From a virus: a stretch of 45,898 bases of DNA. This document shows positions 1 through 45,898 of this stretch, piece by piece. A program made the position numbers and the translations under genes. A model generated the notes under the pieces. That model saw nothing but the letters and a program-made list of their open reading frames with translations, was not told where the DNA came from and did no database searches. Where the stretch lies: UHGV virus genome UHGV-1375876. One strand, written 5' to 3'. Position 1 is the stretch's first letter; every line of letters begins with the position of its first letter.

Positions 1-70
1 GGTGCCTTCTGAGCCTCACGGCCTTGTCGTACTTGAGCTTGCAGTGCGGGCAGAAAATGGTGCCGTTCAT
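1..70 (-). CDS. Zn-ribbon protein, N-terminal part (MNGTIFCPHCKLKYDKAVRLRRH...); continues in frame into 45762..45898 if the window ends are joined
   Basis: ATG at complement 68-70 overlaps the stop of gene 67..333 (ATGA). The frame is open to position 1 with one nucleotide left over, which completes a codon with 45898-45897. It contains a CPHC motif. Confidence 0.5.
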   Translation of the reverse strand, partial: MNGTIFCPHCKLKYDKAVRLRRH

Positions 71-333
71 GCCGCGTTCCTCCTCTTTTCCAGCTTATCC
101 TGATACAGAGCATACCTGTCGTGAAGTTCTGCGCTTACCCATCCCTCGCAGTCGGTGATCTTCTTCGGGTCGATGGCAACCTCAGCATCGGCAAGCATGA
201 TGCCGAACCGTTCCTTGATGTCCTTCACCATGTCCGAAGAGATATTGCACAGCTGGTCGCTCTCGAAGTAGCGGGCGCAGGTGGCGCACACGCGGGGCTC
301 ATCTTCCGGTTCATATTCGTAAGGGTTACGCAT
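67..333 (-). CDS. hypothetical small protein with a CxxC motif
   Basis: 88-aa ORF with a GAGAGGA Shine-Dalgarno 7 nt upstream of the ATG. It is part of the leftward small-gene operon. Confidence 0.5.
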   Translation of the reverse strand: MRNPYEYEPEDEPRVCATCARYFESDQLCNISSDMVKDIKERFGIMLADAEVAIDPKKITDCEGWVSAELHDRYALYQDKLEKRRNAA

Positions 334-367
334 GGCTGTATCCTCTCGGTTGAAGTTCGTTCCGGCG

Positions 368-419
368 TCCCAATCCCGATGAAAAAGCCCCGATTTCTCG
401 GGGCTTCTACGGGACTAGG
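368..419 (-). repeat. intergenic stem-loop repeat, copy A (CCCAATCCCG..CCCCGA-loop-TCGGGG..GGGACTAGG); reads as a terminator-like hairpin plus T-run on the minus strand
   Basis: Shares conserved end blocks and a GC hairpin with copies at 885..932 and 1354..1403. On the minus strand the hairpin GCCCCGAgaaaTCGGGGC is followed by TTTTTCAT. Confidence 0.55.
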
Positions 420-424
420 ATGAT

Positions 425-559
425 TTAATCGTCGCCCGAGCCGTAGCCGGAGCCGTCGCCGTAGCCGGAGCCGTAGCCGGAGCCGGAGCCGTCGCCGTAG
501 CCGGAGCCGTAGCCGGAGCCGGAGCCGTCGCCGTAGCCGGAGCCGTTTACTCCTGCCAT
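425..559 (-). CDS. Gly/Tyr-rich tandem-repeat peptide (MAGVNGSGYGDGSGSGYGSGYGDGSGSGYGSGYGDGSGYGSGDD)
   Basis: 44-aa ORF not in the supplied track because it is under 60 aa. Its ATG overlaps the stop of the upstream gene, with a GAGGTGG Shine-Dalgarno. It is encoded by a roughly 36-bp tandem DNA repeat, gccgtagccggagccg..., at 430..545. Confidence 0.45.
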   Translation of the reverse strand: MAGVNGSGYGDGSGSGYGSGYGDGSGSGYGSGYGDGSGYGSGDD

Positions 560-852
560 ACTTCCACCTCATCGAGAGAGAGCTTTGCCTTTTCAGTGAG
601 CGGAAGCACTTCGATCACTTGGGTCAGGTGAACGGCATCGACCGGAGCGGGAAACTTGCAGTCATCCGGGTTACTCGTGCCGTCCTTGGAAAGCTGAGAA
701 AGGCTTGCCGCTCCAGCCCAGTACCAGACGCGGCGGGCATTCGTGACGACGGCTTCCTGACCGTCCATGTTTTCGAGTTTTCCATAGAAAACCCCGGCGC
801 TGTAGGTTCTGACGATGACGTTCTGTCCGATGAATGGGGAGAGCGTAGGCAT
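547..852 (-). CDS. hypothetical protein
   Basis: 101-aa ORF with an AAAGAGGA Shine-Dalgarno before the ATG and protein-like composition. Confidence 0.5.
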   Translation of the reverse strand: MPTLSPFIGQNVIVRTYSAGVFYGKLENMDGQEAVVTNARRVWYWAGAASLSQLSKDGTSNPDDCKFPAPVDAVHLTQVIEVLPLTEKAKLSLDEVEVWQE

Positions 853-884
853 AGTGTCCTCTTTGGTTGGTGTTGATGAATGTT

Positions 885-932
885 CCCAATCCCGTTTCCT
901 GCCCCGGATTCCGGGGCAAGTGCGGGGCTAGG
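885..932 (-). repeat. intergenic stem-loop repeat, copy B (hairpin GCCCCGGAATCCGGGGC)
   Basis: Conserved CCCAATCCCG and GGGGCTAGG blocks flank a GC hairpin. Confidence 0.55.
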
Positions 933-1918: not shown

Positions 1919-1947
1919 AGAATAGGTAAATTTTACCTTTACGTCAA
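1919..1947 (-). promoter_or_regulatory. sigma70-like leftward early promoter (-35 TTGACG, 17-bp spacer, -10 TATTCT on the minus strand) with operator palindrome AGGTAAATTTTACCT (1924..1938) in the spacer
   Basis: Hexamers read from the minus strand. A near-perfect 15-bp palindrome is shared with the site at 2452..2466. Confidence 0.6.
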
Positions 1948-2466: not shown

Positions 2467-3778
2467 AAAAAGAAGTCAACAGGGCACGCCCAACCGCCCC
2501 GCGAAGAAGCGAACAGGAGGGAGTAGGCCACCGCTCAAGGGGCATTGTCTGATGGACGGCTAGAAACGGTGGCGTCAGGCTCTACACGGGAACCACGGCC
2601 CCATGCCCGAAGCGCAGCAGCGAGACGAGAGAAGACGCGGGGAAGACGGCGCATCAGCCGGAAAGCTCTCGACCTGTAGCATGATGCAGTGACTACAGGG
2701 GCCATGAAGCGACGGCGGCTCCATACCGGAACCACTTAGCGGGAAGGTCTTAGCGCCCCTCAATGGGAAAGGGGCAGCTTTGGCCTTTCGCTCAGGCTCA
2801 CCACCCGGAACTCATGGGAAGCCCGAATGCCTTTCTGCCTTTCCTCTTCGGCATATGCCTTTCCCCTCTTCGCCTACCGAGAGCCAGGGTCAGGGCGGGA
2901 ACCGCCCTCTTGCCGGAATGGGGGGACGGGAAAGATGAAAAAGGGGCACGGAATCTCAAAAGCCGTTTTCAATTCTTTTTGAGATGCTGCGAAGTGTGAA
3001 AAAACGCTAAAACAGGACATTTTACTCTGTGCGTAGCCTGTCCACGAAGTTTATGGGCAATTTATAAGCGATTTATGGGATTTTATGAGTTTTAAAAATA
3101 TCAACTTTTTCAATATGATACACTGTTTTATCTTCTAAGTAAGCTCATTTTAATAATCGTTCTTTGACAATCAGCCCCCATAACCCGCCCAGTCCGGTGG
3201 TAGTGTCATCGGTGGTATGGCGGATAGGGAAAACTTCATGGGCGGGTGGTTCGATGCCGGATACAGTACACCGGGAATCACCACGCCCTAGACCAGCGAC
3301 TAGTGAAAACAACCTTATCCACGCTCTAGCATGGTTCGGGAGTACGATTTCTCGCGCTCCCTTTCATGCTGGCGGTCGAACTGTCGAAAGGTCAACTGAC
3401 CGCCCGGATATAAAAATTCGTATTTCATCACGTTTCACGGCCCGATCTTTGTGTCGTAACCGTGGGCCCTGTTGGTCGGCTCGGCCCCCGTCGCTTCGGT
3501 GCGCTTTGCGCTTCGGCCTTCTTTTCAGCCGTTTTTCCGTCCCGCCGTCCCTGCGCGGCCTGTCTTCACCTCGCCAGCCTGTTGCCCTTCTTTTTCGCGT
3601 CCTACTGGGGAGCCTTAGCACTGGGGGTCGGCATCGTTCGGTTGCTCCATACTGAGCGGCTGGCTTCCTCCGCCCGGGGTTTCGGCTACTTTCCGGCTAG
3701 GTGCCTGGCGTGTTCGCCTTCCCCGTTCGTCGTGAAGTTACAATACCAACTGGTAAAAAATAGGTCAAGAATAAAATT

Positions 3779-5174: not shown

Positions 5175-6119
5175 ATGGAACACGGATATGTCAAGCTTTG
5201 GCGGAAATGTTTAGACAGCGGATTGCTTCAAAATGGCCCCGCATGGCAGCTTTTTGGGTACTTGCTGCTCAAGACTACGCACAGGCCGCATCGCCAGATT
5301 ATCGGTGGCATGGTTTTTGAGCTTGAGCCGGGGGAAGTCATCTTTGGGCGAGCTAAAGCAGCCTCTGATCTGAGGCTGAGCGAAAAGCAGGTAAGAACAG
5401 CTTTTGAGCTGCTTAAAAAACTCGAAATTGTGGCCAGCCGATCGACCAACCGCTGTACGGTGGTTTCTTTTGTGAATTGGCATAGATACCAAGATGAAAG
5501 GCCAGCCGAGGGCCAACCGGAGGGCCAGCCGCAGGGCCAACAAACGGCCAGCAACGGGCCAGCAGAGGGCCAGCAGAGGGCCACAAACAAGAATGTAAGA
5601 ACAAAGAAAGAAGAATATATAAATACACTCCCCCTTACCCCCTCAAGCGAGGGGGAAGCTGATTTGTGCGATGAGCATACTCCTCCCACGGAGTCCCAGA
5701 GTTCGTCACGGGGGGCACGCAATGACGGCACAAAACCACGAGCTGCGGGAACGAATCCCAGAACCAACGGCACAAGCCCTCGGAGCACTGGGGACAACCC
5801 CCGCACAAGGGAGCCTGCCGGTTCCCGTGCCGGGGGGAATTCCGCCGCAGACCTGAAAGCCTTTGCCGACGAGTACACGCAATGCCCGGAACTCAGGCAG
5901 GCATTGGAGGATTTTCGCGTCATGCGGGAACGTTTGCGAAAGCCCCTGACGGCAAGGGCATTCCAGCTCACCTGCACGGAGCTGGATAAACTGGCCGGAA
6001 ATGACGACGTGCTGAAAACAAAGATTCTTGACCAGAGCATCCAGCGGGGGTGGCAGGGGATTTTCCCGCTCCGTGAAGACTCGAAACCCAAAGTAGACCA
6101 GTGGGCAGGCGCAATATGA
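5175..6119 (+). CDS. phage replication initiator (lambda O-like or replisome-organizer winged-helix N-terminus, DnaD-like C-terminus) with a low-complexity central linker
   Basis: The N-terminus (YVKLWRKCLDSGLL..LSEKQVRTAFELLKKLEIV) is typical of phage O/replisome-organizer proteins. The central PEGQ-rich linker is encoded by iteron-like DNA repeats. Its stop overlaps the primase-helicase start (ATGA). Confidence 0.65.
   Translation: MEHGYVKLWRKCLDSGLLQNGPAWQLFGYLLLKTTHRPHRQIIGGMVFELEPGEVIFGRAKAASDLRLSEKQVRTAFELLKKLEIVASRSTNRCTVVSFVNWHRYQDERPAEGQPEGQPQGQQTASNGPAEGQQRATNKNVRTKKEEYINTLPLTPSSEGEADLCDEHTPPTESQSSSRGARNDGTKPRAAGTNPRTNGTSPRSTGDNPRTREPAGSRAGGNSAADLKAFADEYTQCPELRQALEDFRVMRERLRKPLTARAFQLTCTELDKLAGNDDVLKTKILDQSIQRGWQGIFPLREDSKPKVDQWAGAI
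5498..5655. other. putative phage origin of replication inside the initiator gene: about 8 iterons GGCCA(G/A)C at roughly 11-bp spacing (5500..5585), AT-rich tract (5586..5628), palindrome CCCCTCaagcGAGGGG
   Basis: Direct repeats with helical periodicity followed by an AT-rich segment, all inside the O-like gene. This mirrors the lambda ori arrangement. Confidence 0.5.
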
Positions 6120-7921
6120 GCAGCATGAAGCAATACGACATCCGGCAAATTTCTGAAATGCTGGCGGCGAGGGCTGAGTCCGTTTGCGAGTGGCTGTTGC
6201 CCGGTGGAAAGCGTGAAGGCCGGGAATGGCGGGCCGGAAGTATAACCGGGGAGACGGGGAAGTCGCTTGGAGTCAATCTTTCCGGGAAACCGGGAGTGTG
6301 GCGGGATTTTGCGGACGATGCCAAAGGCGGCGATCTTATCGACCTCATTCAAGCCGTGCATGGGATCACGAAGGCGGATGCCGTCAGGGAGGCGAAAGAA
6401 TTCCTTGGCATAGCCTCAGAACGCCCACAATTCGCTCCTGAGCGCAAAAAGTACGTTAAGCCGACTCGTCCATCGGGATTGACGAAACCGAGCCCTGAAA
6501 TGCTTCTCTGGTTCGAAAAACGGGGCATCAGCAGAGAGGTCGTTGAAGCGTTCAAAATTGGGCAGCTAAACCATGCCCAGAAAGGGCCTGTCATCGTGTT
6601 TCCGTATCTGCGCGGCGGGGAACTTGTTTTTATCAAGTATCGCCCGCTGCATGACAAAAAAGACATGTGGACGAGCAAGGATTCTGAACCCTGTCTGTTC
6701 GGCTGGGATTTGATGCCGGAGAATGCGAGGACGCTGGTTATTTGCGAAGGGGAACCGGATGCAATGGCTTTTCGGCAAGCTGGAATCTGCGCCGTATCCG
6801 TGCCGCGCGGGGGTGGTGAGGGGGATAAGCAGGACGGGTGGATCGATGCGGAGTGGGAGCGCCTCCAGCTTTTTGACACGATTTACCTTGCGCTTGATCA
6901 GGACGAACAGGGCTGTAAAGCAATGGAGCATATTTCCCGCCGTTTAGGGCAGCATCGTTGTTTCATCGTCAGTTTTGGCGGGCACAAGGATGCAAATGAA
7001 GCTTTGGTTTCCGGGGTTGACCTGAAATCCGTTTTTGAATCTGCAAAGACTATCGATCCTGTGGAACTGCATTCCGCTTCTGACTATCTCGATGAAGTAT
7101 TTGCATATTTTAGTGACGCTCAAGAAGCCGGGGGGATCAAGCTGCCGTGGGCGAAGACGCAGACCACTGTCGGTTTGCGCAACGGAGAAACGACAATCTG
7201 GGCTGGCATAAATGGACATGGCAAAAGCCAGATTATCGGGCATGTTGTCGTTGATTCACTGGCAAAGGGAGAACGCTGGTGCGTCGCCTCCATGGAGTTC
7301 AAGCCATACAAATTCCTTGCCAGAATGGCACGACAGGCCTGTGCCACGAACAGACCTGAGCCGGGCGACAAACAGGCTCTTGACGCTTTCTGGAATGGTT
7401 CCCTCTGGGTGTTTGATGTGCAGGGTACAGCAAAGGCTGACAGGATTCTTGAAGTGTTTGAGTATGCGTATCGCCGTTATGGTGTCAGGCATTTTCTTAT
7501 CGACAGTCTGGCCAAATGCGGATTCGGCGAAGATGCATACAACGAACAGAAAGCCTTTGTTGATCGACTTTCAGACTTTGCCAGAAATAATGACATTCAG
7601 GTGCATCTTGTCTGTCACTCCCGCAAACGAAATGACGAATCGGACCTTCCTGACAAGTTTGACATCAAGGGAACAGGCGCAATCACGGATATGGTTGATA
7701 ATGTTTTCATTGTGTGGAGGAACAAGCCAAAAGAGCAGAAAGTACAGGAAGCGACAAGCGATTGGGGAAAGCAGCAAGCTCAGAATGAAGGGCCTGACGC
7801 CATCCTGTATTGCTGCAAGCAGCGCAACGGAGAATGGGAGGGGAAAATCAAGCTCTGGTTTGACCCAGCTTCTTTGCAATACCTGGAATCCGCAACTTCT
7901 TCTCCTGTGAGGTACTGCTGA
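6116..7921 (+). CDS. bifunctional DNA primase/helicase (TOPRIM primase plus DnaB/T7 gp4-like helicase)
   Basis: TOPRIM motif VICEGEPDAMAF and Walker A GINGHGKS. Helicase motifs DSLAKCGFGEDAY and HLVCHSRK are present. About 600 aa. Confidence 0.85.
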   Translation: MSSMKQYDIRQISEMLAARAESVCEWLLPGGKREGREWRAGSITGETGKSLGVNLSGKPGVWRDFADDAKGGDLIDLIQAVHGITKADAVREAKEFLGIASERPQFAPERKKYVKPTRPSGLTKPSPEMLLWFEKRGISREVVEAFKIGQLNHAQKGPVIVFPYLRGGELVFIKYRPLHDKKDMWTSKDSEPCLFGWDLMPENARTLVICEGEPDAMAFRQAGICAVSVPRGGGEGDKQDGWIDAEWERLQLFDTIYLALDQDEQGCKAMEHISRRLGQHRCFIVSFGGHKDANEALVSGVDLKSVFESAKTIDPVELHSASDYLDEVFAYFSDAQEAGGIKLPWAKTQTTVGLRNGETTIWAGINGHGKSQIIGHVVVDSLAKGERWCVASMEFKPYKFLARMARQACATNRPEPGDKQALDAFWNGSLWVFDVQGTAKADRILEVFEYAYRRYGVRHFLIDSLAKCGFGEDAYNEQKAFVDRLSDFARNNDIQVHLVCHSRKRNDESDLPDKFDIKGTGAITDMVDNVFIVWRNKPKEQKVQEATSDWGKQQAQNEGPDAILYCCKQRNGEWEGKIKLWFDPASLQYLESATSSPVRYC

Positions 7922-9373: not shown

Positions 9374-9898
9374 ATGCACATCATCAGATACCGCAAGGTT
9401 CCCGGAAAGATCGTCGCAAGTGCGGCGCTCGTCGCGCTTCTCGGCGTCGGGGCGGCCACCCTGTCCGTGGATATGATCGCGGATTTTGAAGGCTATGTGC
9501 CCGAAGCCTATCAGGACCCGGTCGGTATCTGGACCAAATGTTTCGGCGACACCGAGGACGTGGTGCCGGGTGCCCGGTACACGTTTGATCAGTGCGTGGA
9601 CTCCCTGAATGCCGCCGTCTATGCCCACGCCGGGCCTGTCCTGAGCTGCGTGCCGGGGCTGGCCGAGCAGCCGTACAAGGTCAGGGCGGCTTTCGTCTCG
9701 ATGGCCTACAACATCGGGCCGCATGGCTTTTGCACGTCATCCGTGGCCCGGTACGCCAATGCTGGAGAGTGGGAACGCGCCTGCACGCGTATGGCCGAGA
9801 TATACAAGACGGCCAAGGGGAAGGAGCTTCCCGGACTTGTGCGGCGTCGGCAGGCGGAATCCGCGCTTTGCCTCCAAGGGCTGCGAGAGGGCCGATGA
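9374..9898 (+). CDS. endolysin, GH24 phage lysozyme with an N-terminal SAR signal-anchor
   Basis: Catalytic region DFEGYVPEAYQDPVGIWTKCFGDT, like P21 R21. The N-terminal hydrophobic Ala/Gly-rich segment is KIVASAALVALLGVGAATLSV. Confidence 0.8.
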   Translation: MHIIRYRKVPGKIVASAALVALLGVGAATLSVDMIADFEGYVPEAYQDPVGIWTKCFGDTEDVVPGARYTFDQCVDSLNAAVYAHAGPVLSCVPGLAEQPYKVRAAFVSMAYNIGPHGFCTSSVARYANAGEWERACTRMAEIYKTAKGKELPGLVRRRQAESALCLQGLREGR

Positions 9899-30695: not shown

Positions 30696-30826
30696 GCCGG
30701 AACCTCGCGACGTTGCACGAAATGCAGACAGTATACGGCCTGTCCGATGCCTACGAGATGCTAGAAATCATCGCCGTGGACGGCCACAACCAACGCCTCT
30801 GGAGCAAATTCCATGAACGCAGGTGA
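30198..30826 (+). CDS. tail assembly chaperone, long form, produced by a putative -1 programmed frameshift at T TTT TTG (30590..30596)
   Basis: The -1 frame stays open from the slippery run to 30826 and encodes protein-like sequence (..NLATLHEMQTVYGLSDAYEMLEIIAVDGHNQRLW..). This parallels the G/GT or E/E' arrangement before the tape measure. Confidence 0.45.
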
Positions 30827-32621: not shown

Positions 32622-32623
32622 CA

Positions 32624-35100: not shown

Positions 35101-35112
35101 CGGGGAGGTGTT

Positions 35113-36284: not shown

Positions 36285-37524
36285 TATCGATTTTACCGAA
36301 AACGGCCCGGTCGTACCCGATACCGCGACCGTCCGGGACGCTGTCGAAACTGATTGGCAGGCGGCATTCGACAATCGGCTGAACCCGGATCCGGCAACGC
36401 CGCAGGGACAGCTCATTACCTCAGAAACGGCCATCGTGCAGGACAAGAACAGCCAGCTTTTGTTCCTCTCGAACATGTTCAACCCCGAGACTGCGGAGGG
36501 TATCTATCAAGACGCGCTCGCCAAAATTTACTTTCTGACCCGGCAGGCCGCCCGTTCCACGGTCGTCCCCTGTACTTGTACGGGACTTCCCGGCACCGTC
36601 ATCCCCGGCATCGGCAGCGAAGCCCCGGCGCTTGCAAAAGATGCGGACGGGAACATCTTGGTCTGTCAGACGGGAGGGACGATCCCCCAATCCGGCAGTA
36701 TTATCCTTGATTTTGCCTGTCAGGTTCCGGGGCCTATTGAAATCCGGCAGGGAACTGTGACTACGATTGTACGAACCATCCCCGGATGGGACACGATCAC
36801 CAATGAAGCCGGGATTACTGGGCAAAACGTCGAGAGCCGGGCCGCGTTCGAGTCCCGGCGCTACGCCAGCGTCGCGAAGAACGCCCGGAGCGTTGCAGCC
36901 GCCGTCTATGCCAACGTCGGCGATCTGGATGGCGTGCTTGATGTCTGTGTGCGTGAGAACAAAACCAGCGCACCGTTTGAAGTACAGGGCGTCACGCTCA
37001 AGCCGCACTCAATCTATGTTGCGGTCGTCGGCAGCGCGACGGATAGTGATATTGCTGAGTCAATTTACGCCCGTTGTTCAGCCGGATGTGATTACAACGG
37101 CAACACCAGCGTCACTGTGACTGATCCGGTAACCGGAGCGGTCGAGACGGTACTCTTTGAGCGCCCGGAATCGCTCCCGGTGGGCATTCAGGTGACTATC
37201 CGCAAAAATGCCTCAATGCCGAGCAACGTCGAAGAACTCATCAAAACTGCCGTTGTCGCCGAATTCTACGGAGAAACCGCCGACGCCTGCGGAAATACGG
37301 GTCAGCGCGTTCATATCGGGGATACCGTGTATGCCAGCCGCTTTTATTCCGCCGTGCTCGGAACTGGCGTTACCGACTTGGTGAGTATCGAAATCGCGGC
37401 GCCCGTCGGTGAAGGTTCGCCAACGTGGGGCGACTACATCACCATTAATATAGATGAAGCCCCCATGCTCGTCTCCGATAACGTCACTGTAACCATCATT
37501 GAAGCGAGGTCGGGCCGTGGATAA
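36271..37524 (+). CDS. baseplate J-like protein
   Basis: 417 aa at the position and of the size of P2 gpJ/Mu gp47. Confidence 0.65.
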   Translation: MSQSSIDFTENGPVVPDTATVRDAVETDWQAAFDNRLNPDPATPQGQLITSETAIVQDKNSQLLFLSNMFNPETAEGIYQDALAKIYFLTRQAARSTVVPCTCTGLPGTVIPGIGSEAPALAKDADGNILVCQTGGTIPQSGSIILDFACQVPGPIEIRQGTVTTIVRTIPGWDTITNEAGITGQNVESRAAFESRRYASVAKNARSVAAAVYANVGDLDGVLDVCVRENKTSAPFEVQGVTLKPHSIYVAVVGSATDSDIAESIYARCSAGCDYNGNTSVTVTDPVTGAVETVLFERPESLPVGIQVTIRKNASMPSNVEELIKTAVVAEFYGETADACGNTGQRVHIGDTVYASRFYSAVLGTGVTDLVSIEIAAPVGEGSPTWGDYITINIDEAPMLVSDNVTVTIIEARSGRG

Positions 37525-38182
37525 CTGGCGCGAAACGCTCCTTTCGCAATACGACAACTCTGAACGGCTGCTGGCGCTCATCGAATCGATGAATGCCGTC
37601 ATTGCGCCTACGGCGGATATTGCGGCGTTCTATGAGTCCGTCTTTGACCCAGAAACGGCATTCGGATGGGGGCTTGACGTGTGGGGACGCATCGTCGCCA
37701 TTCCGCGTACGCTTGAAGTAGAGGCGACGGACATCAAGACGTTCGGTTTCTCCGGTTCAAACCTCAGCAACTTTGGGCACGGTCCTTTTGCATATGAGAG
37801 CAAATCGAACACGTTCATACTTCAAGATAACGCATATCATCTTTTGATCTGGATGAAAGCAGCTTCGAACATCACCGACGGCAGCCTCCTAGATTTGAAC
37901 AAGATCGTTCATTGGCTTTTCTCGGATCGCGGTCATATTGCCGTCGTGCATGTCGGAACGATGAAAATACGCTACGTTATCGGCTTCAAGCTCCAGCCAT
38001 ACGAGCGTGCGCTTCTCCTGCGCGATGACGTTCCCCCAAAGCCTGCGGGCGTCGGCTATGACGTCTATCAAGTCATCCCGAAACATACCTTCGGTTTCGC
38101 CGGATCCGGCGGTCAGAATTTCAACAACGGCGTTTTTCAGCCGTATGGAGGCCCTGTAGATGCCTATTCCCTCAACGCCTAG
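37499..38182 (+). CDS. tail protein I-like (baseplate)
   Basis: Follows the J-like gene. 227 aa. An alternative GTG start at 37517 has a GAGG Shine-Dalgarno. Confidence 0.45.
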   Translation: MKRGRAVDNWRETLLSQYDNSERLLALIESMNAVIAPTADIAAFYESVFDPETAFGWGLDVWGRIVAIPRTLEVEATDIKTFGFSGSNLSNFGHGPFAYESKSNTFILQDNAYHLLIWMKAASNITDGSLLDLNKIVHWLFSDRGHIAVVHVGTMKIRYVIGFKLQPYERALLLRDDVPPKPAGVGYDVYQVIPKHTFGFAGSGGQNFNNGVFQPYGGPVDAYSLNA

Positions 38183-39293
38183 CATCATGCCCAACGTCTT
38201 GGGATATGCAGCGGATACCGTGCAGATCCCTAAAACGACCCCCACGGGTCAAGGTATTCCCTCTTTCCGAGATCTCTTTCCGTTCATCACGCAGGTCGAC
38301 CCGGACGCGGGCGGCGTCATGGTTGAACGTTCATGGATGAACGCGCTTTTCAACCTGCTTGGTCAACACGCCTTTTTCCAACAATCCGGATGCGTCTACC
38401 CGTGGCAAGATACGCTGAACTATATCACGGGCTCTCATGTCAAAGGTAGTGATGATGTCGAGTACATCGCGTTGCAACCTTCCGGGCCAGATGTGTCCGG
38501 CGTGGGAGCAAAAGACCCTGCACAGCAAGCAAACCGCGCGTACTGGGTTTCGCTTGCATCTTTTGTCTCCGGCGACTTTGTTCCAGATTCGCGGCGGGTC
38601 ATCGCCGGAACGGGGCTCACTGGCGGCGGGCCGCTCTCCGCTGACGTGACTCTCGCGGCGAAGCTGACCGACAGCGTGAGCTCGAGAGATTCGACCACGG
38701 CGGCGTCCGCGAAGGCTGTGAAGACGGCCTATGATCTGGCGAACAGCAAGCAGGCAAACCTTGGTTTTACGCCCGTGCAGCAGGGCGGCGGAACCGGGCA
38801 AGGAAGCGATAAGATCTACATAGGGTACAGTAAGAGTGGACTGAAGGCGCAGGCGGATGTCCTCGATCTCGGATATATCGTCACGACATCCGCCGGATGT
38901 ACAAAAGCCCCCAGTGCCGCCAATGCGGATTATGCGACTTCGGCAGGTACATTATATATAGGGTGGCCCTCCACTTGGCACTGGATTGGTCAGGCGGGTC
39001 AACCGGAATGGTTGTGGGGAGGTAATGAGGCTACCCGTGGTAGTATGTACGTCTACAACCCCGTCAATTTCAGAGTGAACTATGCGAACAGCGCGGGGAC
39101 GGCGACAGGCCTCACTTATGCCTTTACAAAAAATAGCTCCCTTGTACTGCCGCCGGGGGGAACGTGGTTTGTTCTGAACTGGTGGGATGGCGATGGTGTC
39201 ACCGCGAATGGTAACTGGTCAGGTGGTCAAATAGTCGCCGGAGGATCTAGTGTAGGCGTAAGCAATGGGGCGTTTGCCCTGAGGGTTGCATGA
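38160..39293 (+). CDS. tail fiber protein
   Basis: P2 gpH-like motif (..SSRDSTTAASAKAVKTAYDLANSKQ..) and a Gly-rich beta-type C-terminus. GGAGG Shine-Dalgarno. Confidence 0.65.
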   Translation: MPIPSTPSIMPNVLGYAADTVQIPKTTPTGQGIPSFRDLFPFITQVDPDAGGVMVERSWMNALFNLLGQHAFFQQSGCVYPWQDTLNYITGSHVKGSDDVEYIALQPSGPDVSGVGAKDPAQQANRAYWVSLASFVSGDFVPDSRRVIAGTGLTGGGPLSADVTLAAKLTDSVSSRDSTTAASAKAVKTAYDLANSKQANLGFTPVQQGGGTGQGSDKIYIGYSKSGLKAQADVLDLGYIVTTSAGCTKAPSAANADYATSAGTLYIGWPSTWHWIGQAGQPEWLWGGNEATRGSMYVYNPVNFRVNYANSAGTATGLTYAFTKNSSLVLPPGGTWFVLNWWDGDGVTANGNWSGGQIVAGGSSVGVSNGAFALRVA

Positions 39294-39697
39294 TCGAAAA
39301 AACATACGGACAAATTATCCACCGGGCATCTGATGATTCTTATGTCATCACGAAGAACGGAATGCCCTACCACGTCTATCCCTACGCCGCCGAGTTCGCG
39401 GAAGAATGGGACGCCGTGTTCGCCTACGCCGAAGCACACCCGGAGATGGTGACGGAAGAGCAGCCCTACGTCCCGCCCGTGCCGACGACCGAAGAACTCG
39501 CGGCTAGCGTACGCGCCGAACGCAACAAACGGCTTGCTCTCACCGATCATCTTGTCATGCCAGACTATCCGCTTGATACGGATAAACTTGAAGAGATCAA
39601 GGCATACCGCCAAGCTCTCCGCGACATTCCGCAGCAACCGGGCTTTCCGTGGGGTGGACCTGACGATCCTGCGTGTCCGTGGCCTGTCGAACCGTGA
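39290..39697 (+). CDS. tail fiber assembly protein (Tfa)
   Basis: ATGA coupling to the fiber gene. Conserved C-terminal pattern ..ERNKRLALTDHLVMPDYPL..EEIKAYRQALRDIPQQPGFPW. Confidence 0.6.
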   Translation: MIEKTYGQIIHRASDDSYVITKNGMPYHVYPYAAEFAEEWDAVFAYAEAHPEMVTEEQPYVPPVPTTEELAASVRAERNKRLALTDHLVMPDYPLDTDKLEEIKAYRQALRDIPQQPGFPWGGPDDPACPWPVEP

Positions 39698-39867
39698 TTT
39701 GCAAAAATCGTAGGCATGGCTAGACTCTTTAGAAACAAGGAGGAAGGTCATGCCGCTACCCATGCCCGAAGAAGAGGAGCACTTTCGTTGTCCGCACGGT
39801 GAACGTGTTCAAGCACTGATGCTGTGTTCTCTGGACTGTGCTGAATCTGGCGCGCATCCAGACAGAA

Positions 39868-39892
39868 AAGGAAAAGCCCCTTTCGGGGCTAC
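39868..39892. terminator. bidirectional terminator hairpin between the convergent tail operon and the leftward early operon
   Basis: AAAAGCCCCtttcGGGGCT. On the minus strand it is followed by TTTTCCTTTTCT. Confidence 0.55.
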
Positions 39893-40237
39893 TTCGGTTC
39901 GCGGGGTTCGTCGGGAATGGGCACCACCGCCACAAGTTCGTCATCCCATGCTCGCGCGTGCTCCCAACTACACAGATCACTCTCGTTCGTGCATGGAAGC
40001 TTGCGGCACAAATACCGCCCATCCCCGTCTATGCCTACGGCGATGCGCGGCACCCAAAATTTCATGCCGGAATCGCGCACAGCCACACTCTCTCCACAAA
40101 CCGGCATATACTTTGACTCGGACCACGAAGCGGGGGCGTCAGCCGTGCCCGCCACATGACTGTAGAAACCCGGCACCCATGCAGTGTCGTCGCTATCCCG
40201 CACCAGTACCCTGTAGAACGGCTTGAAATCAGACATC
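39889..40237 (-). CDS. hypothetical protein
   Basis: 116 aa from an internal ATG with a GGAGAAGAGGAGAAGA Shine-Dalgarno. Protein-like composition, unlike the overlapping plus-strand ORF. Confidence 0.45.
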
Positions 40238-40618
40238 GTTCTTCTCCTCTTCTCCCACCGGTTCGTGGGGGCGGGGTTCGGGGATGGGGCCAGCCCATTG
40301 TCCGCCGAGATCTTGATAGGATACACGGTCAATCTGCATAGCGATATCGACGGTTCCATCTTGGTAGACGTACCGAGGGATGCGGCTATCTTCATCCCTC
40401 CACCAATTCCATGCTCCCAATTGTGGATCGCGCGTCCACGTCAGCGCTCGGGGCAGGGCGTTCCATTGCCTGATCGCATATTCCGTATCGACCTTTGGGG
40501 AGCAAGGCCCGCACATCCCGCACGCGGGACAGAATCCGTAGGCTCTCGTATCTACTCTCATGACCACATCGGAAGCCCCACACGCCGGGCACGGTAGCAA
40601 CGTCAGTTCTTCGGGCAT
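40229..40618 (-). CDS. Lar-family restriction alleviation protein with a C-terminal extension
   Basis: LLPCPACGAS..FCPACGMCGP..AIRQWNALPRA matches the Lar Zn-ribbon pattern. Confidence 0.55.
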   Translation of the reverse strand: MPEELTLLPCPACGASDVVMRVDTRAYGFCPACGMCGPCSPKVDTEYAIRQWNALPRALTWTRDPQLGAWNWWRDEDSRIPRYVYQDGTVDIAMQIDRVSYQDLGGQWAGPIPEPRPHEPVGEEEKNDV

Positions 40619-40818
40619 GATTCCTCCAGCATTTTTCTGATTGTCATAAGTGAATCATCAACGTAGAGAAGCTCATTGACAGCGGAATCGAGCAAGCATT
40701 GATACCGCTCCTGTCTACATCGTTCCTTCATTTCTCTCAGATGTTCGACGATTGCCCCGATTTCCCATTGCCGCTGCTCAAGTCCCGCATCAAGTCCGTT
40801 CAGCGCGTGCTCGTTCAT
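40603..40818 (-). CDS. hypothetical small protein
   Basis: 71-aa ORF coupled to its neighbours. Confidence 0.4.
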   Translation of the reverse strand: MNEHALNGLDAGLEQRQWEIGAIVEHLREMKERCRQERYQCLLDSAVNELLYVDDSLMTIRKMLEESCPKN

Positions 40819-41102
40819 CTCCCTTCCTCCACGGCTTTGCGGGCGGCTTCACGCATACACTCCATGCACGAACTATCTTGGCATTTAGACATATCTACAT
40901 TGCGGGGGCACATTCCAAGCAAATCAACAGCGTTAGTGTATCCGTGTGCCAGCCAATCCGCCTCCCGCTCCAGCCGTTCCAGTTCCCGGCACAACCTGAA
41001 AATGACGGCGGACGGCCCCATTTCGTCTAGCGCCTTGGAGTCTCCGAGCATATCGCCAACGGCGGCGGAACGGATGCGGGCGAGTTCTTCGGTGGTGATC
41101 AT
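40815..41102 (-). CDS. hypothetical Cys-rich protein
   Basis: Start at the internal ATG, which overlaps the upstream stop (ATGA). Confidence 0.4.
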   Translation of the reverse strand: MITTEELARIRSAAVGDMLGDSKALDEMGPSAVIFRLCRELERLEREADWLAHGYTNAVDLLGMCPRNVDMSKCQDSSCMECMREAARKAVEEGR

Positions 41103-41299
41103 TCTTCCGGCTCCACAAGTACCTTTTCCCAATCCTGTGGTGTCACTGCCCAACAAAGACCTCTTCCCATCACACACGACCCGTTGAAACATCTTTCAGG
41201 ACATTTTTGTTGTGCCTCAAACGTTTCCCGGCACATATAGGCCCGCGCGATTGCCTCTTTCGAGCACTGCATGATTGATTCAAGCGTGGTTTCGTTCAT
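41099..41299 (-). CDS. hypothetical Cys-rich small protein
   Basis: 66-aa ORF. Confidence 0.4.
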   Translation of the reverse strand: MNETTLESIMQCSKEAIARAYMCRETFEAQQKCPERCFNGSCVMGRGLCWAVTPQDWEKVLVEPEE

Positions 41300-41654
41300 T
41301 GGTCATCTCCTGTTCGAGCATTTTTTCCACTGTACGAATTTTTTCAGCCATTTTCTTTGCCAACTTCCAACGATAGGCACGGATGGCTTCCAACCTTGTT
41401 GCATAGACATCTACCCCTTCCATCCTGCTCCAATACTTGCTCCCTGCTTCCCTTTTTCTCTCACCCTCAGCATCAACCATCGCTACAGATGGATAATATT
41501 CTCCGTAAGAAACCCACCCTCTAGTGATTTTACCGTGGGGCGTTTCGATGGGCATCGGCTCATCAAAGGAGGGCCATAGGCGAGTTCCTGTCAATCTGAT
41601 TTCTTCGATTTCAGCCTGAGCCCACTTCGGTAGGTCGTTAAGCGTCTTTGCCAT
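41280..41654 (-). CDS. hypothetical protein
   Basis: Start at ATG 41654 with a GAGGAG Shine-Dalgarno. Confidence 0.45.
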   Translation of the reverse strand: MAKTLNDLPKWAQAEIEEIRLTGTRLWPSFDEPMPIETPHGKITRGWVSYGEYYPSVAMVDAEGERKREAGSKYWSRMEGVDVYATRLEAIRAYRWKLAKKMAEKIRTVEKMLEQEMTNERNHA

Positions 41655-41997
41655 TATCCATCTCCTCTTCAACGGCGATGCGTGCTCTTTTCAGACGGCA
41701 CCATCTGCACGAAAATGCGCTTCCATCGTCTTCGGTAAAGTATGGACAATCACTAAGGTTAGCGTTTTCGGGAAGAGGACAAGGCTCTTCCAGTGTAAGT
41801 TTTGCCGCCACCCTCTCGGCAAACTCGGCGGCGTCGCAATAGTCAGGTTCCTTCATAAGCGCCCTATCCTTAATGGGAAACCCGATATCCCGGCAGATTT
41901 TACGAAGCGCCGGACTGCATGTCCTCTTATTCTTAGAGCACCGAAAGCACACATCATCGCGGTGCTCCAGCCACTTCCTTTCCTGTTTTGTCAGCAT
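41638..41997 (-). CDS. hypothetical Cys-rich protein
   Basis: GGGGTGA Shine-Dalgarno. 119 aa. Confidence 0.45.
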   Translation of the reverse strand: MLTKQERKWLEHRDDVCFRCSKNKRTCSPALRKICRDIGFPIKDRALMKEPDYCDAAEFAERVAAKLTLEEPCPLPENANLSDCPYFTEDDGSAFSCRWCRLKRARIAVEEEMDNGKDA

Positions 41998-42164
41998 ATT
42001 TCACCCCGCGCGTTGTTCAGGCAGACGCGCCCCTGCCAAAACATGTTACAGGGGTTCCATTAGGATATGGATTCATCGGCATCACCCCCTTCCGGGGCCA
42101 GTTGCCCAGATCAGCCAAAGAAAGAAGGCGACCCACGCGAGAGTGAGCCGCCTTTCCCATTTCG

Positions 42165-42470
42165 TCATTCCGCCTTTTCCAATAATGCGGTATGGGGTCG
42201 GTAAAACTTTCCTACCCCACCCGTTTTCGAGGGGACGCGGACAATATACGATACGTGATCCCGAGGATATCCAAGGTGGGGTGTCCTTCTCCCATATTTC
42301 TCAGCTACCCTCGTAGCATATATCTGAGGATTCCCGCCCGCAGGTATGACTGATTCAACAATGCCCTTTTTTTCTTTCCAAAACCCATTTGCGGCAGAAG
42401 CCCACTGTACCGTATCGCCAACTTTGAAATTTTCCATATCGATCCCGCGTGCTTCGTATGCGCGGCCCAC
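42165..42470 (-). CDS. hypothetical protein
   Basis: 101 aa with a GTG start. An alternative ATG at 42437 is possible. Confidence 0.4.
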   Translation of the reverse strand: MGRAYEARGIDMENFKVGDTVQWASAANGFWKEKKGIVESVIPAGGNPQIYATRVAEKYGRRTPHLGYPRDHVSYIVRVPSKTGGVGKFYRPHTALLEKAE

Positions 42471-42484
42471 GGTTGAGAGATGGA

Positions 42485-42682
42485 TTACTCGCTGGCGTCA
42501 ACCGGATAGAGGCCGATGACGGTTTCCGTGAACGCCTTTCCTTCGGTGTCTTCGCAGCCGCATTCGGTGGACTGTGGGTCAATGTCGAACATGCCCGCTC
42601 CTTCGCTTCCGTCCAGCGTGATGCAGACATCCTGCTCAGGATCAAAGGCTTCAAGCTTCTCGATCAGTTCTCCGATGGTCAT
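42485..42682 (-). CDS. hypothetical acidic small protein
   Basis: 65 aa from an internal ATG with an AAGGA Shine-Dalgarno. Confidence 0.4.
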   Translation of the reverse strand: MTIGELIEKLEAFDPEQDVCITLDGSEGAGMFDIDPQSTECGCEDTEGKAFTETVIGLYPVDASE

Positions 42683-42749
42683 GTTGAATCCTTGGGTTAG
42701 AGTTTGGGGTATGAAAAGCCCCGCCGGGGAGGGCGGGGCGTGGGGTGCT

Positions 42750-43086
42750 TCAATATTGAGGTAACTGTCCGATCTTTTGGAGATAGTTATATCGAGAGCA
42801 AACAGTATGCAGATCGTGTGCGGGAATATACGCTGCACATCCTTCGCGTTTTTCTCCGGTTGCTTTCAACGGACAATCTGCGAAATATGTACCTTCACCA
42901 TCGCAGTGTTCGCAACTTGTGCACTTCCCGATAATACTGTCGATCTCGTATCCGTGTAGGTCTTCAAAGTTACATACAAATTCTTCCACAGAAGCATTGT
43001 CTTTACAGTCATCAAGGCATCTTTCAGCTTGCTGATATGTAGGATACTCTTTATGACATATCGGACAAACATATTTTTTTACTTTC
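42750..43086 (-). CDS. Zn-finger protein (multiple CxxC/HxxC pairs)
   Basis: GGAGAAAG Shine-Dalgarno. Cys pairs at CPICHKEY, CLDDC and CTSCEHC. AT-rich. Confidence 0.45.
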
Positions 43087-43336
43087 ATACTTTCTCCGCA
43101 ATCCTCAGCTTGCTTGCCGGGACCGTCCATTTCCCCTCGTAGCCGTACACGGTGACGTACATAGCCTTGCGTCCCTTCCCGAAATCACGGAGATACGGGG
43201 CACAGGATGCCGTCACGGTGACGGTTTGACGTTCGCCGCCTACCTTGGCTCGGTATAGAAAACGGCGTCCCGGAATTATCGATGCCAAATCAGGACATTT
43301 TAGTCTGATGTCTGGGAGGGCGTCGGTGTCGGGCAT
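43085..43336 (-). CDS. hypothetical protein
   Basis: Start at the internal ATG with a GGAG Shine-Dalgarno. Confidence 0.35.
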   Translation of the reverse strand: MPDTDALPDIRLKCPDLASIIPGRRFLYRAKVGGERQTVTVTASCAPYLRDFGKGRKAMYVTVYGYEGKWTVPASKLRIAEKV

Positions 43337-43566
43337 GGCGTTACTCCGTTGAACTCTTTCAATGTTCCGTCGCTCCATATAACTCTGTGAGTGTTGTTCT
43401 CAGAGTCTACAATGACGAACACGATATCCTTCTTCTGCTTCTCTGAAAGTATCCCGCTCATCTCACCAGACCTATACGCAAGATGCATACAGAAAAAAAA
43501 CATGATGAGCGCGTAAACCATCCCCATAAATTTTGAGTTCATGAATCTTGTAAATCCGTTACCCAC
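43300..43566 (-). CDS. small membrane protein
   Basis: GTG start with a GGGAGG Shine-Dalgarno. Hydrophobic segment MGMVYALIMFFFCMHLAY. AT-rich. Confidence 0.4.
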   Translation of the reverse strand: MGNGFTRFMNSKFMGMVYALIMFFFCMHLAYRSGEMSGILSEKQKKDIVFVIVDSENNTHRVIWSDGTLKEFNGVTPCPTPTPSQTSD

Positions 43567-43849
43567 AGTTCACCGCCTCCCGCAGTTCCTTTCCCGGCCT
43601 GAACTTCACGGCCTTGTGCGCGGGGATGGGGATGCTTTCCCCGGTGCGCGGATTGCGGCCTTGACGTTCGGGCACGTCCACGACTTCGAACACGCCGAAG
43701 CCCTGAATTTTCAGGAAGCCGTGTTCAACGATAGCCCGTTGGAGCGTATCTAATACCTGATTGACGACACGTTCGGTCATCATGATCGAGTTCATGGTGC
43801 CCATGGTGTCTGAATTTCGAAGCATCCTGACAAATTCGGATCTGTTCAT
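43559..43849 (-). CDS. HU/IHF-family DNA-binding protein
   Basis: Classic HU/IHF arm: FGVFEVVDVPERQGRNPRTGESIPIPAHKAVKFRPGKELREAVN. Confidence 0.85.
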   Translation of the reverse strand: MNRSEFVRMLRNSDTMGTMNSIMMTERVVNQVLDTLQRAIVEHGFLKIQGFGVFEVVDVPERQGRNPRTGESIPIPAHKAVKFRPGKELREAVNCG

Positions 43850-43850
43850 G

Positions 43851-43880
43851 GCGTTACCTCAAAAGAAAGGCCCGGTGGTG
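43851..43880 (-). terminator. rho-independent terminator between recT and the HU/IHF gene
   Basis: On the minus strand the hairpin GGCCCGGctcaccaCCGGGCC is followed by TTTCTTTTG. Confidence 0.55.
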
Positions 43881-43896
43881 AGCCGGGCCGGGGTGG

Positions 43897-44826
43897 TTAT
43901 TCTGCCCACGCGGGGCATTGGGCGTGCTGGTCACATTCGGAACACTTCAAGTCGTTCACCTGCTTTTCAGTTTTCGGACAGGTGATCAGATTGACGGCGG
44001 GGGCGGGCTGAGCTTCCGGCTGCGCGGGTACTTCCGATTCAGAGCTATCGGAGTCCACAATGTCGGTATCAACCACGTCCCCAAACGAGCCGATGTCCTT
44101 GATGCTCTTCATGTCAGCATCCATGGCCTGCTGCATTTCAACGGACATGACGCCCCACTTGCTGATGAGCTGGCGGATCATGGTTTTGAAGGCCATAGCG
44201 TCGAAGTCCTTGCTCCAGAACGAGTTGTTCCATCCCTTGTTCAGGTCATTCTTGTAGGCCTTCGAGTAGCGCAGGGCGTGCGCCTGCATCTTTTCCTTGC
44301 TCCAGTACAGGCACTTCCGAAATCCGTTCAGGTACTCGAACATGGCGTAATAGCCGGTGGTTGGCGTCTCTTCCCGGAGGGCGTCATCCTGAATAAGGTC
44401 GATTTCCAGCTCTTCATTCAGCGGGTCAAAGAACTTAAGTTCTCCCTCCTTGACGGCAATGACGTTTAGTTTGCGGTAGTTTCCGGAACGGATGGCAAGC
44501 TGGACATAGCCCTTGTAGCCAAGTTGGAACGTCGCCATGTTTCTGTTGTTTTTGTTGTCTCGGTAGGAGACTACCCATGCCTGCCCAAGTTGGCGGTTGA
44601 GCGAAAGGTTCAGACTCTGGGCTTGCAATGCGGAGGCGATCAGACTCATTGGTTCACAGTCTCTGAGCGCAACATCCTGATTCATAAGGCTGATCAGGCT
44701 GGTTACGAAATCATCGGCCTTCTTGCCTACAAGAACGGTGGAAATCTTGGAGCGCACCAGCTCGGCGAAACTCTTTTTTTGTTCCTGAGCCGGGGGCATG
44801 GGGCGGGTGAGATCAAGCTGTGACAT
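43897..44826 (-). CDS. recT: RecT-family single-strand annealing recombinase
   Basis: RecT core (..LGQAWVVSYRDNKNNRNMATFQLGYKGYVQLAIRSGNY..) plus a C-terminal Cys-rich tail. Confidence 0.85.
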   Translation of the reverse strand: MSQLDLTRPMPPAQEQKKSFAELVRSKISTVLVGKKADDFVTSLISLMNQDVALRDCEPMSLIASALQAQSLNLSLNRQLGQAWVVSYRDNKNNRNMATFQLGYKGYVQLAIRSGNYRKLNVIAVKEGELKFFDPLNEELEIDLIQDDALREETPTTGYYAMFEYLNGFRKCLYWSKEKMQAHALRYSKAYKNDLNKGWNNSFWSKDFDAMAFKTMIRQLISKWGVMSVEMQQAMDADMKSIKDIGSFGDVVDTDIVDSDSSESEVPAQPEAQPAPAVNLITCPKTEKQVNDLKCSECDQHAQCPAWAE

Positions 44827-44836
44827 GGTATTGGCC

Positions 44837-45610
44837 TTATGCCGCCCACTTGGGCAGACTGATGGTTAAAATGTCTCTGGTGTAGCAGGGAAAGGTTCCC
44901 GAGTTCAGGCAACGCTTGAGGCTTTCGACAGCGGACAGACACTCGGATAGCCCCTTTTGCAGGGCATCCTCGTCGAGCTGGCACATGGTGACGAGGTGCG
45001 GGAATGTTTTTTCGACAAAGATGAAGATGAACGCCTCGCAGGGTTGGCCTATGGCTTTCATCCCATCGAGATACCAAGCGGCCTGCCGATGGTAGCCGTA
45101 TTTCGCGATGGTGCGCTGGATGGCCTCTGGGTTCGCGCTCTCCGTGGTTTTGAGGTCGGCACAGAAGCGTTGCCCGAAAACGGTAGAAACGATGTCCGGC
45201 TTGGCCTTGCATTCGATGCCGTCGCGCATCCAGTAAATGGGCTGTTCCGCAGTGTAGTGCCTAAAAAGGCACTTGGCCTGTGGGTGCTCCCGGACTGCCT
45301 CGGACATGAGCAGGGCCTTTTCGTAGTCCTCCTGCTTGACGATGGTCACAGTGTCCGGGATGCCTTTTTTCCACTCCCGTCCTGCCTTCGTGGAGAGATT
45401 GATGTCGGTGACGGCGAACTCGTTGGCGAACAGCTCAGGTTGAAGGCAGAGAAGATGGAACATACTGCCGAAGGAAAGGGCCTTGGATTCCTGCTCGTCG
45501 TCCACGCCCTCCAACCACGCTTTGTAAAGAGCAGGACATTCAAGCAACAGGTCGATGGCACTTTTGGAAAGAGCTTTGTTGGAGAAGTATGCTGCGTCAG
45601 CCTTATTCAT
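44837..45610 (-). CDS. PD-(D/E)xK-family exonuclease (YqaJ/lambda Exo-like partner of RecT)
   Basis: D..K / QxxxY motifs (FCADLKTTE..YGYHRQAAWYLDG). Positioned directly upstream of recT in the same operon. Confidence 0.65.
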   Translation of the reverse strand: MNKADAAYFSNKALSKSAIDLLLECPALYKAWLEGVDDEQESKALSFGSMFHLLCLQPELFANEFAVTDINLSTKAGREWKKGIPDTVTIVKQEDYEKALLMSEAVREHPQAKCLFRHYTAEQPIYWMRDGIECKAKPDIVSTVFGQRFCADLKTTESANPEAIQRTIAKYGYHRQAAWYLDGMKAIGQPCEAFIFIFVEKTFPHLVTMCQLDEDALQKGLSECLSAVESLKRCLNSGTFPCYTRDILTISLPKWAA

Positions 45611-45765
45611 CGCATGGCCTCCATCCCGTACAAGATCTGTGGAAGAATGCAGATCCCAAGCATGACCGACATAAAGATGATGACCGCAGCAACTCTAGCC
45701 CGGTCAACCTTTTTAGGCCGTTCCAAAGATACCTTGGCGTGCTTCATGTAGACGTTGGAAATCAT
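45607..45765 (-). CDS. small membrane protein (52 aa)
   Basis: Not in the track because it is under 60 aa. GGAGGG Shine-Dalgarno. Hydrophobic core AAVIIFMSVMLGICILPQIL. ATGA overlaps at both ends. Confidence 0.4.
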   Translation of the reverse strand: MISNVYMKHAKVSLERPKKVDRARVAAVIIFMSVMLGICILPQILYGMEAMR

Positions 45766-45898
45766 GCCGCCGCCCTCCGTGCCATGATTTTGAGGTAGTT
45801 AGCCTTTGCCAGAAACGATCGTGCGGCGTTCTCGCACGCCGTGACCAGCGTCTCGGCGGTGTAGTATTCCGCGCAGGACGAGCAGATCCAGAAGTCGC
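45762..45898 (-). CDS. Zn-ribbon protein, C-terminal part (...DFWICSSCAEYYTAETLVTACENAARSFLAKANYLKIMARRAAA); the 5' part is at 1..70
   Basis: The frame is open from the window edge to a TGA that overlaps the downstream ATG. It joins 1..70 exactly in phase, giving a 68-aa CPHC-x18-CSSC protein. Confidence 0.5.
   Translation of the reverse strand, partial: DFWICSSCAEYYTAETLVTACENAARSFLAKANYLKIMARRAAA

Follow-up and report, generated by a model that had tools for sequence, protein, structure and literature searches.

Lambdoid phages and prophages carry their recombination genes in early-left operons, such as exo-bet-gam...ral of lambda and recE-recT-lar of the Rac prophage. A comparable array runs through the ends of the virus genome UHGV-1375876, a stretch of 45,898 nucleotides (nt) that was analysed over its full length and is referred to here as the window. 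As in the lambdoid operons, small early genes on the same strand follow an operator-controlled promoter, and an exonuclease and an annealase are accompanied by small zinc-ribbon or Lar-like accessory proteins; in relatives of the window the integrase lies at the distal end of this array. The window differs from the lambdoid operons in that its exonuclease is of the PD-(D/E)XK DUF3799 type and is paired with RecT, and in that a zinc-ribbon protein of 68 amino acids (aa), encoded across the two window ends, falls below every curated family threshold. It also has a 1.2-kb untranslated leader, and no evidence for an N-type antiterminator was found in it.

The nearest relatives are integrated prophages of the Bilophila type, together with IMG/VR viral contigs from their family (IMGVR_UViG_3300008599_000014, 49,367 bp; IMGVR_UViG_2561511128_000006, from an isolate genome; and ENA contigs of 0.05–3.5 Mb). 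Their module order is that of the window. The portal proteins are 97–98% identical, the exonuclease/RecT/zinc-ribbon block is 98–99% identical in DNA, the tail and fibre genes are 84–95% identical, and the spacer after the tail chaperone is alike. The immunity regions and many of the small early genes are mosaic. Unlike the window, these relatives have attP, a gene for a tyrosine integrase and one for a 164-aa protein where the tail chaperone gene is followed by the leftward array, and they occur within bacterial chromosomes.

Cultured phages are far more distant. The Burkholderia temperate myophages phiE131, phiE058 and PE067 (~44 kb) resemble the window in size and in their contractile tail. 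By portal the closest are phiE131 and PE067, with 45–46% identity over 82% of the protein, and there is no DNA similarity. Pfam families built on the Pseudomonas phages E217 and Pa193 (Pbunavirus) match the sheath, tube, hub, gp27-like and gp24-like proteins of the window, but this likeness is at the family level only, and genome size, early genes and lifestyle differ. Searches of GenBank phages with the junction of the window ends (distant-mode BLAST) and with 20 kb of the window (near mode) returned no DNA match.

Join of the window ends and closure of the genome

The sequence-only reading had proposed that the two ends join in frame and rebuild a zinc-ribbon gene. Read in reverse complement from the ATG at 70..68, the minus-strand open reading frame (ORF) at the left end covers 23 codons and one further nucleotide up to position 1. 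Continued from 45898 it stays in frame to a TGA at 45764..45762, and the joined product, MNGTIFCPHCKLKYDKAVRLRRHRDFWICSSCAEYYTAETLVTACENAARSFLAKANYLKIMARRAAA, has 68 aa with the pattern C7xxC10-x18-C29xxC32. The 5' part of the gene (1..70, minus strand) comprises codons 1–23 and the first base of codon 24, encodes the knuckle C7-P-H-C10 and is preceded by a Shine-Dalgarno-like GGAGG. The 3' part (45762..45898, minus strand) comprises the last two bases of codon 24 and codons 25–68, and specifies the other knuckle, C29-S-S-C32, as well as the C-terminal helix. That such a join would be unlikely by chance holds for the cysteines, since a CxxC falls inside the next 12 codons with p=0.0105. It does not hold for the open frame: at least 45 open codons from a random position and frame in this genome occur in 39% of cases (p=0.39), so that the ORF continuation by itself is weak evidence for the join.

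The neighbouring genes fit the join. The start of the zinc-ribbon gene overlaps the stop of the 88-aa gene directly upstream (67..333, minus strand), to which it is translationally coupled, in an ATGA at 67–70. Its stop overlaps the start of the downstream gene for a hydrophobic small protein of 52 aa (45607..45765, minus strand) in an ATGA at 45762–45765, and this gene in turn shares an ATGA (45607–45610) with the start of the exonuclease gene. With ATGA overlaps at both ends of the zinc-ribbon gene, joining the window ends makes the series of translationally coupled genes continuous again. The order 88 aa, 68 aa, 52 aa, exonuclease is also called in L101, L102, L104, L106 and L108–L110 (L numbers denote fetched loci).

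The junction itself is present in other sequences. A 38-nt probe across the join (19+19) was found within 11 IMG/VR contigs, and 16 fetched loci contain all 50 nt around the junction without a mismatch. In three assemblies the sequence agrees with the window at 100.000% identity for 14.1–16.6 kb up to position 45898 and goes on, gapless, for 510 nt from position 1: L108 (JGI 3300045988 Ga0495776_185753, 45,354 bp), L109/L205 (ENA ERZ1310118 NODE_315, 46,808 bp) and L110 (ENA ERZ28597182 scaffold_415, 45,944 bp). These assemblies are independent of one another, though the underlying samples need not be; other samples are the source of the chromosomal prophages and of the IMG/VR contigs. The chromosomal prophages L101, L102, L104 and L106, on contigs of 53 kb–3.48 Mb, cross the join at 94.6–99.2% identity. 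A database search with the joined protein, as had been proposed, gave full-length homologues in a cluster of 343 members, the best with 94% identity (E=2e-36). The exact junction in independent sequences, together with these full-length homologues, shows that the ends are adjacent and that the gene is real.

Terminal redundancy was also looked for, and no direct repeat of 5–400 nt is common to both window ends, so the join neither repeats nor lacks any sequence. The break lies inside the zinc-ribbon gene at no repeat, which makes it an arbitrary linearisation point and no biological end.

In other assemblies this genome is cut open at different points. The ENA contig ERZ919744 k127_27917 (45,942 bp) starts at ~470–476 of the window, within a 36-nt tandem repeat; over 5077–26627 it agrees with the window at 100% identity and a constant offset of 475. 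Contigs of 45,942 and 45,944 bp are opened in the tandem repeat at ~470–557, and those of 45,354 and 46,808 bp in the tape-measure gene at ~31.3–31.8 kb. The sibling sizes of 45.3–46.8 kb, compared with 45,898, are in keeping with a single circle and short overlaps. Only contigs of at most 50 kb carry exact copies of the portal, of the tail chaperone and of a 120-aa helix-turn-helix (HTH)-like protein.

The tandem repeat (439–546, 3.0 copies of 36 nt) underlies a gene for a 44-aa Gly/Tyr/Ser/Asp repeat protein (GYGDGSGSGYGS...; 425..559, minus strand), which is always found downstream of a DUF6948 gene. Its copy number varies between assemblies, with one unit fewer in L108 and L109, and the product has 32–86 aa in relatives. 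The contig ends of L207 and L110 fall in this repeat. In L108 and L109, positions 1–486, which would correspond to window ~31321–31806 in the tape-measure gene, do not match the window sequence. This mismatch could reflect strain variation or an assembly bubble in that gene.

The window is very probably an arbitrary linearisation of a complete genome with a circular map of ~45.9 kb, belonging to an uncultured phage of myovirus type with a Bilophila-like (Desulfovibrionaceae) host in the human gut. The proposal of a circular or circularly permuted complete phage genome is thus borne out by base-for-base adjacency of the ends, by the presence of all modules (replication, lysis, packaging, head, tail and recombination, a full tailed-phage set) and by sibling assemblies opened elsewhere. 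The further proposal that the whole element lies within the window stands insofar as the genome forms a complete circle and the window is free of host DNA. It has to be amended in that the attP-integrase cassette that relatives carry between the positions equivalent to 39697 and 39889 is lacking. For the reading of the window it follows that coordinates wrap, that the split gene is real and that no part of the element lies outside; features near either end are to be read on the joined sequence.

The host assignment comes from the relatives. A protein identical to the exonuclease is encoded in 1,514 blocks of the contig collection, some of them on bacterial contigs as long as 3.48 Mb. On the contigs of megabase scale the genes follow one another as 88 aa, 68 aa, 52 aa, exonuclease, RecT, further genes, the 164-aa gene, the tyrosine integrase and then host genes. 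An ABC-F gene flanking one related prophage is 97% and 96% identical to genes of two gut metagenome-assembled genomes (MAGs) of 'uncultured Desulfovibrio sp.', and 93% identical to that of a Bilophila MAG, which points to a Bilophila-like member of the Desulfovibrionaceae. For the window, this host is inferred from modules that it has in common with the prophages at ~99% identity. Bacterial contigs from one genome per species, screened with the exonuclease, gave no confirmed match. As a complete genome, the window serves as a reference for phages of sulfidogenic gut bacteria of the Bilophila type, and it represents a phage with no close cultured relative (portal at most 46%).

The protein rebuilt at the join is predicted to be a Cys4 zinc ribbon, with two CxxC knuckles on beta-hairpins. 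All four cysteines (C7, C10, C29 and C32) are conserved in the full-length, intact homologues; one homologue has a longer N-terminal ribbon in place of the usual one and keeps the C-terminal helix. A structure model was built with 12 sequences on the 94%-identical homologue P0001. In this model (mean predicted local distance difference test score, pLDDT, 73.6) four short strands bear both knuckles and are followed by a helix at 38–67. The strand region is modelled at moderate confidence (pLDDT 65–69), and the window join falls within the second hairpin. No curated Pfam threshold is reached, the best score being that of Zn_ribbon_SprT (20.6 bits against a cut-off of 28.1). PF14354 (Lar) gives no match, and PHROG gives a weak Lar-like match to phrog_6422 (E=1.4e-3, 20 bits). 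Foldseek of the P0001 model against PDB returned generic zinc-binding modules only, all at E>0.8. The best guess for its role, given the weak Lar-like resemblance, is a small early accessory factor of a recombination or host-takeover module.

Integration cassette, packaging and lifestyle

Downstream of the tail chaperone, L225 and L226, two siblings of the window, have a spacer (window 39311–39878), then ~330 nt, the integrase and the 164-aa gene. In the isolate-genome contig L227 the same spacer runs to where the prophage ends and an unrelated integrase island of the P4 type follows. The window has neither the integrase nor the 164-aa gene. Searches of it by tblastn with five sibling integrases gave nothing better than E=0.026 over 35 aa, the sibling 164-aa protein and three sibling repressors gave nothing, and no unannotated ORF of a size suitable for an integrase is left. 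The sequence that follows the spacer in the siblings L224–L227, where attP would be expected, is also absent from the window.

The point of loss can be located. The window tracks the spacer of the siblings up to the microhomology AAAAGCC at 39868–39874. Past it, the window tracks the sequence that lies between the 164-aa and 115-aa genes in L104, namely the terminator-like hairpin AGCCCCGAAAGGGGCT (39890->39875). The stretch 39859..39895 is thus both the end of the leftward gene array and the cassette-loss junction, with AAAAGCC as the crossover. An exact 36-nt deletion junction, AGACAGAAAAGGAAAAGCCCCTTTCGGGGCTACTTC, is present in seven loci (L108–L114) from at least five samples. From these alignments it looks like attP, int and the 164-aa gene were deleted at a 7-nt microhomology beside the operon terminator. 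The lineage descends from prophages that integrate, whose tyrosine integrase, attP and neighbouring 164-aa gene it no longer has. With neither integrase nor attP, the lineage is probably unable to integrate unaided. The element, a complete circle, is an integration-deficient derivative. Closure and cassette loss would not surprise a phage genomicist; the latter is a natural case in which the means of integration were lost, and the lineage concerned is known from several human samples.

On sequence evidence, four forms of the DNA would be compatible with the circular map: a closed circle, headful DNA that is permuted, a molecule with cos ends, or one with a short direct terminal repeat (DTR). 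The large terminase belongs to the Terminase_6N/6C type, and a small terminase and a MuF/SPP1-gp7-like head protein are encoded alongside it. Phages that package by the headful mechanism, whose genomes assemble as circles, typically have such a set; T7-like DTR phages have the same terminase fold family. The terminase type and its companions make circularly permuted, terminally redundant virion DNA produced by headful packaging the somewhat favoured explanation. The circular map would then reflect such DNA, and a circular replicative form is also possible.

Several points weigh against this account of a closed, headful-packaged and integration-deficient genome. Physical topology and termini were judged from assembled sequence. 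The wrap-around of single ENA contigs, by ~44–80 nt of overlap in the tandem repeat, follows from lengths and offsets only, and record names suggest that some of the 100%-identical assemblies may share one sample (ERR414388 / SAMEA2338767, PRJEB5224). The spliced terminase (extein) had no match among PDB sequences by phmmer. With this result, and with cultured phages at no more than 46% in the portal, the packaging mode rests on family type alone. Finally, a repressor-like gene and operator-like palindromes remain, so lysogeny may persist.

Fixed physical ends inside the window, cohesive or in the form of a short DTR, are the strongest competitor to headful packaging, and are nevertheless unlikely. 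The circle would in that case be a circularised or replicative form or a collapsed repeat. Nothing in the sequence speaks against such ends, and the assemblies break only at repeats or variable regions (439–546 and the tape measure), hence they are uninformative on termini. However, the Terminase_6N/6C protein is unlike GpA of lambda or Terminase_1 of HK97 and P2, its association with the small terminase and the MuF/SPP1-gp7-like protein is usual in headful packagers, and the window has no terminal repeat.

A phage-plasmid, in which the integrase-less lineage is kept as an episome under its repressor, is improbable. The absence of integrase and attP would suit it, as would the retained repressor-like 120-aa gene with its repeated operator-like palindromes, the presence of Rha and Bro-type genes, the restriction of exact copies to contigs that never exceed 50 kb, and the recurrence of one deletion junction across samples. 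No ParA/ParB pair and no plasmid-type replication gene was found in the window, however. Its sole ParB_N-domain protein (10513–11142) adjoins the small terminase, an arrangement that many phages have, and its matches are to families of the nuclease/methylase type. A purely lytic lifestyle also accounts for the same data.

Hardly tenable at all is a fragment of an integrated prophage or larger element with a coincidental in-frame join: the relatives are integrated prophages and a long open frame after a random join is not rare, but the junction is contiguous base for base in the 16 loci, the joined protein has full-length homologues, integrated relatives end at the integrase, ~6 kb from the join, and the window holds no host gene. 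Together with the 100%-identical assemblies that run across the join, these findings led to rejection of both the prophage-fragment and the chance-join explanation.

Palindromes or half-sites of the form AGGTAAA(N)TTTACCT lie at four promoter-like places, 1924–1938, 2452–2466, 3785–3791 and 3909–3915. They surround the 120-aa HTH-like gene (2040–2402) and a Cro-like ORF (3933–4178), and the surroundings of 2040–4178 look like an immunity region. The 120-aa gene has no family match, and a 163-aa version of it (2040–2531) is not on record. The repressor-like genes of relatives, which encode 229–260 aa and match HTH_3 or Peptidase_S24, have no counterpart in the window.

Leftward array, leader and candidate RNAs

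The sequence-only reading had described the leftward genes as one early operon of roughly 8 kb, running from a promoter at 1919..1947 across the junction down to 39889. The array and a promoter-like site do exist. The array comprises 22 called minus-strand genes that extend over ~7.9 kb, from 1871 through the join to 39889, and is closed by the terminator-like hairpin described above. The promoter-like site TTGACG-17-TATTCT (1919..1947, minus strand) overlaps the palindrome AGGTAAATTTTACCT (1924–1938), and a terminator-like hairpin at 2009->1988 precedes it. Within the array, further terminator-like hairpins occur at 43889->43869, 42739->42718 and 42154->42125, and a hairpin with a T-run near 400->380.

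A second promoter-like site, TTGACC-17-TATTGT with TG (3740..3768, minus strand), is conserved in the family at the early-left position and is associated with a lineage-specific palindrome; the leader starts from ~3733. Heteroimmune relatives each have their own TTGAC-N17-(-10) promoter and their own palindrome, followed at a fixed distance by a transcribed sequence common to all of them, TTCACGACGAACGGGGAAGG, from about +1. This leader start is found on 25 viral contigs. In L104 and L106 the leader lies directly 5' of the 88-aa/zinc-ribbon/exonuclease chain. Given the internal hairpins and the family promoter further upstream (3768->3740), a single unit from 1919–1947 is unproven. One transcription unit from 1947 is plausible, and a longer unit of ~9.7 kb from 3740 is equally possible.

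The untranslated early-left leader is conserved over 3300–3768 (minus strand), and 3737->3300 shows weak covariation. That this leader is a put/nut-like antitermination element is speculative.

A separate intergenic element of ~55 nt occurs in three copies in the first part of the array (~366–418, ~884–936 and ~1353–1407, minus strand), each 20–30 nt upstream of the next gene. It consists of CCTAGYCCCG, a GC hairpin with a variable loop, and CGGGATTGGGA. The first copy also has a T-run. The element may be a site of processing, antitermination or termination.

A candidate for a new structured RNA of ~430 nt lies on the minus strand at window ~2480–2930; a promoter-like site (3000->2972) bounds it on one side and a terminator-like hairpin (2502->2479) on the other. 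None of the assemblies has a called gene over 2480–2930, and conserved stretches contain insertions or deletions of 1, 2, 4 and 8 nt, which are not multiples of three. Rfam gave nothing at E<=1 on 2400–3950. RNAalifold on 14 sequences predicted 82 pairs, and compensatory changes are seen at 21 of these. Pairing is maintained in 94.5% of cells, compared with 43–49% when partners are slid, and none of 500 shuffles reaches the observed values. In 21 held-out sequences 83% of cells pair (42–50% in slid controls), with 22 covarying pairs against 7–12 in the controls. These comparisons support the existence of a structure in the 2480–2930 RNA; the details of the fold are unsupported, as the consensus is unstable between alignments.

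About 40 distinct copies of this candidate were found, all on human-gut contigs. Six environmental loci returned by the motif scan (L251, L263, L283, L285, L286 and L289) were left out because their match lengths are unlike those of the family. They were rejected as chance matches: five of the six are long enough to compare, and show no similarity to the family.

A broader proposal, which is tentative and on balance doubtful, is that a naturally integrase-deleted, repressor-bearing Bilophila prophage lineage circulates between people, and that its 1.2-kb leader holds both the ~430-nt RNA and a family-wide 5' element. If this were true, the RNA and the 5' leader element could act in antitermination or immunity.

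Gene content of the window

Downstream of the 52-aa gene, the leftward array continues with the PD-(D/E)XK exonuclease of the DUF3799 family (44837..45610, minus strand; Pfam 2e-31) and a RecT-family single-strand annealing protein (43897..44826, minus strand; Pfam 3.6e-39). The distal part (39889..43849, minus strand) has 12 called small genes. These include an HU-like gene and a second Lar-like zinc-ribbon protein (40229–40618), for which the Lar-like signal is weak.

On the plus strand, a replication module at 5175..7921 encodes a DnaD/O-like initiator and a Toprim-DnaB primase-helicase. A RusA gene is also present. Like the other modules of the window, it was assigned from Pfam and PHROG and from precomputed matches on identical proteins. 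The lysis region (9374..10487, plus strand) consists of a lysozyme gene (9374–9898; PF00959 on an identical protein) and two small genes. It is followed by the gene for the ParB_N-domain protein, then by those for the small (11139–11543) and large (11533–15021) terminase, both on the plus strand. The head module (15077..20734, plus strand) includes the portal, MuF-like, DUF2213/Pa193 gp24-like, cement and major capsid proteins.

The capsid and tail modules are separated by an island mostly on the reverse strand (20807–25811), with two Bro-N proteins, Rha, a PH/glycine-zipper protein and an AcrIF11-like ADP-ribosyltransferase (21143–21646). The island looks like an anti-defence or moron region. 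The contractile-tail module that follows (25883..39697, plus strand) encodes sheath, tube, tape measure, Dit-like, hub, baseplate J, wedge, fibre and chaperone, the last at 39290–39697.

The window has no host gene. A search for tRNA or tmRNA found none, and over the whole window no Rfam family reached the gathering threshold.

A plus-strand ORF of 158 aa (39750–40226) with a strong Shine-Dalgarno sequence, AAGGAGGAAGG, lies antisense to the conserved 115-aa gene (39889–40236). It is probably spurious beyond its start, though the gene caller of one assembly picked it.

The large terminase is a single ORF of 1162 aa that contains two inteins, in comparison with an intein-less homologue of 490 aa. 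The first intein, C69..N422 (+1 Ser), is located in the Walker A motif (P-loop) and carries LAGLIDADG motifs. The second, C809..N1130 (+1 Cys), is located in the HDDQ nuclease motif. The length of the spliced protein, ~488 aa, agrees with that of the intein-less homologue.

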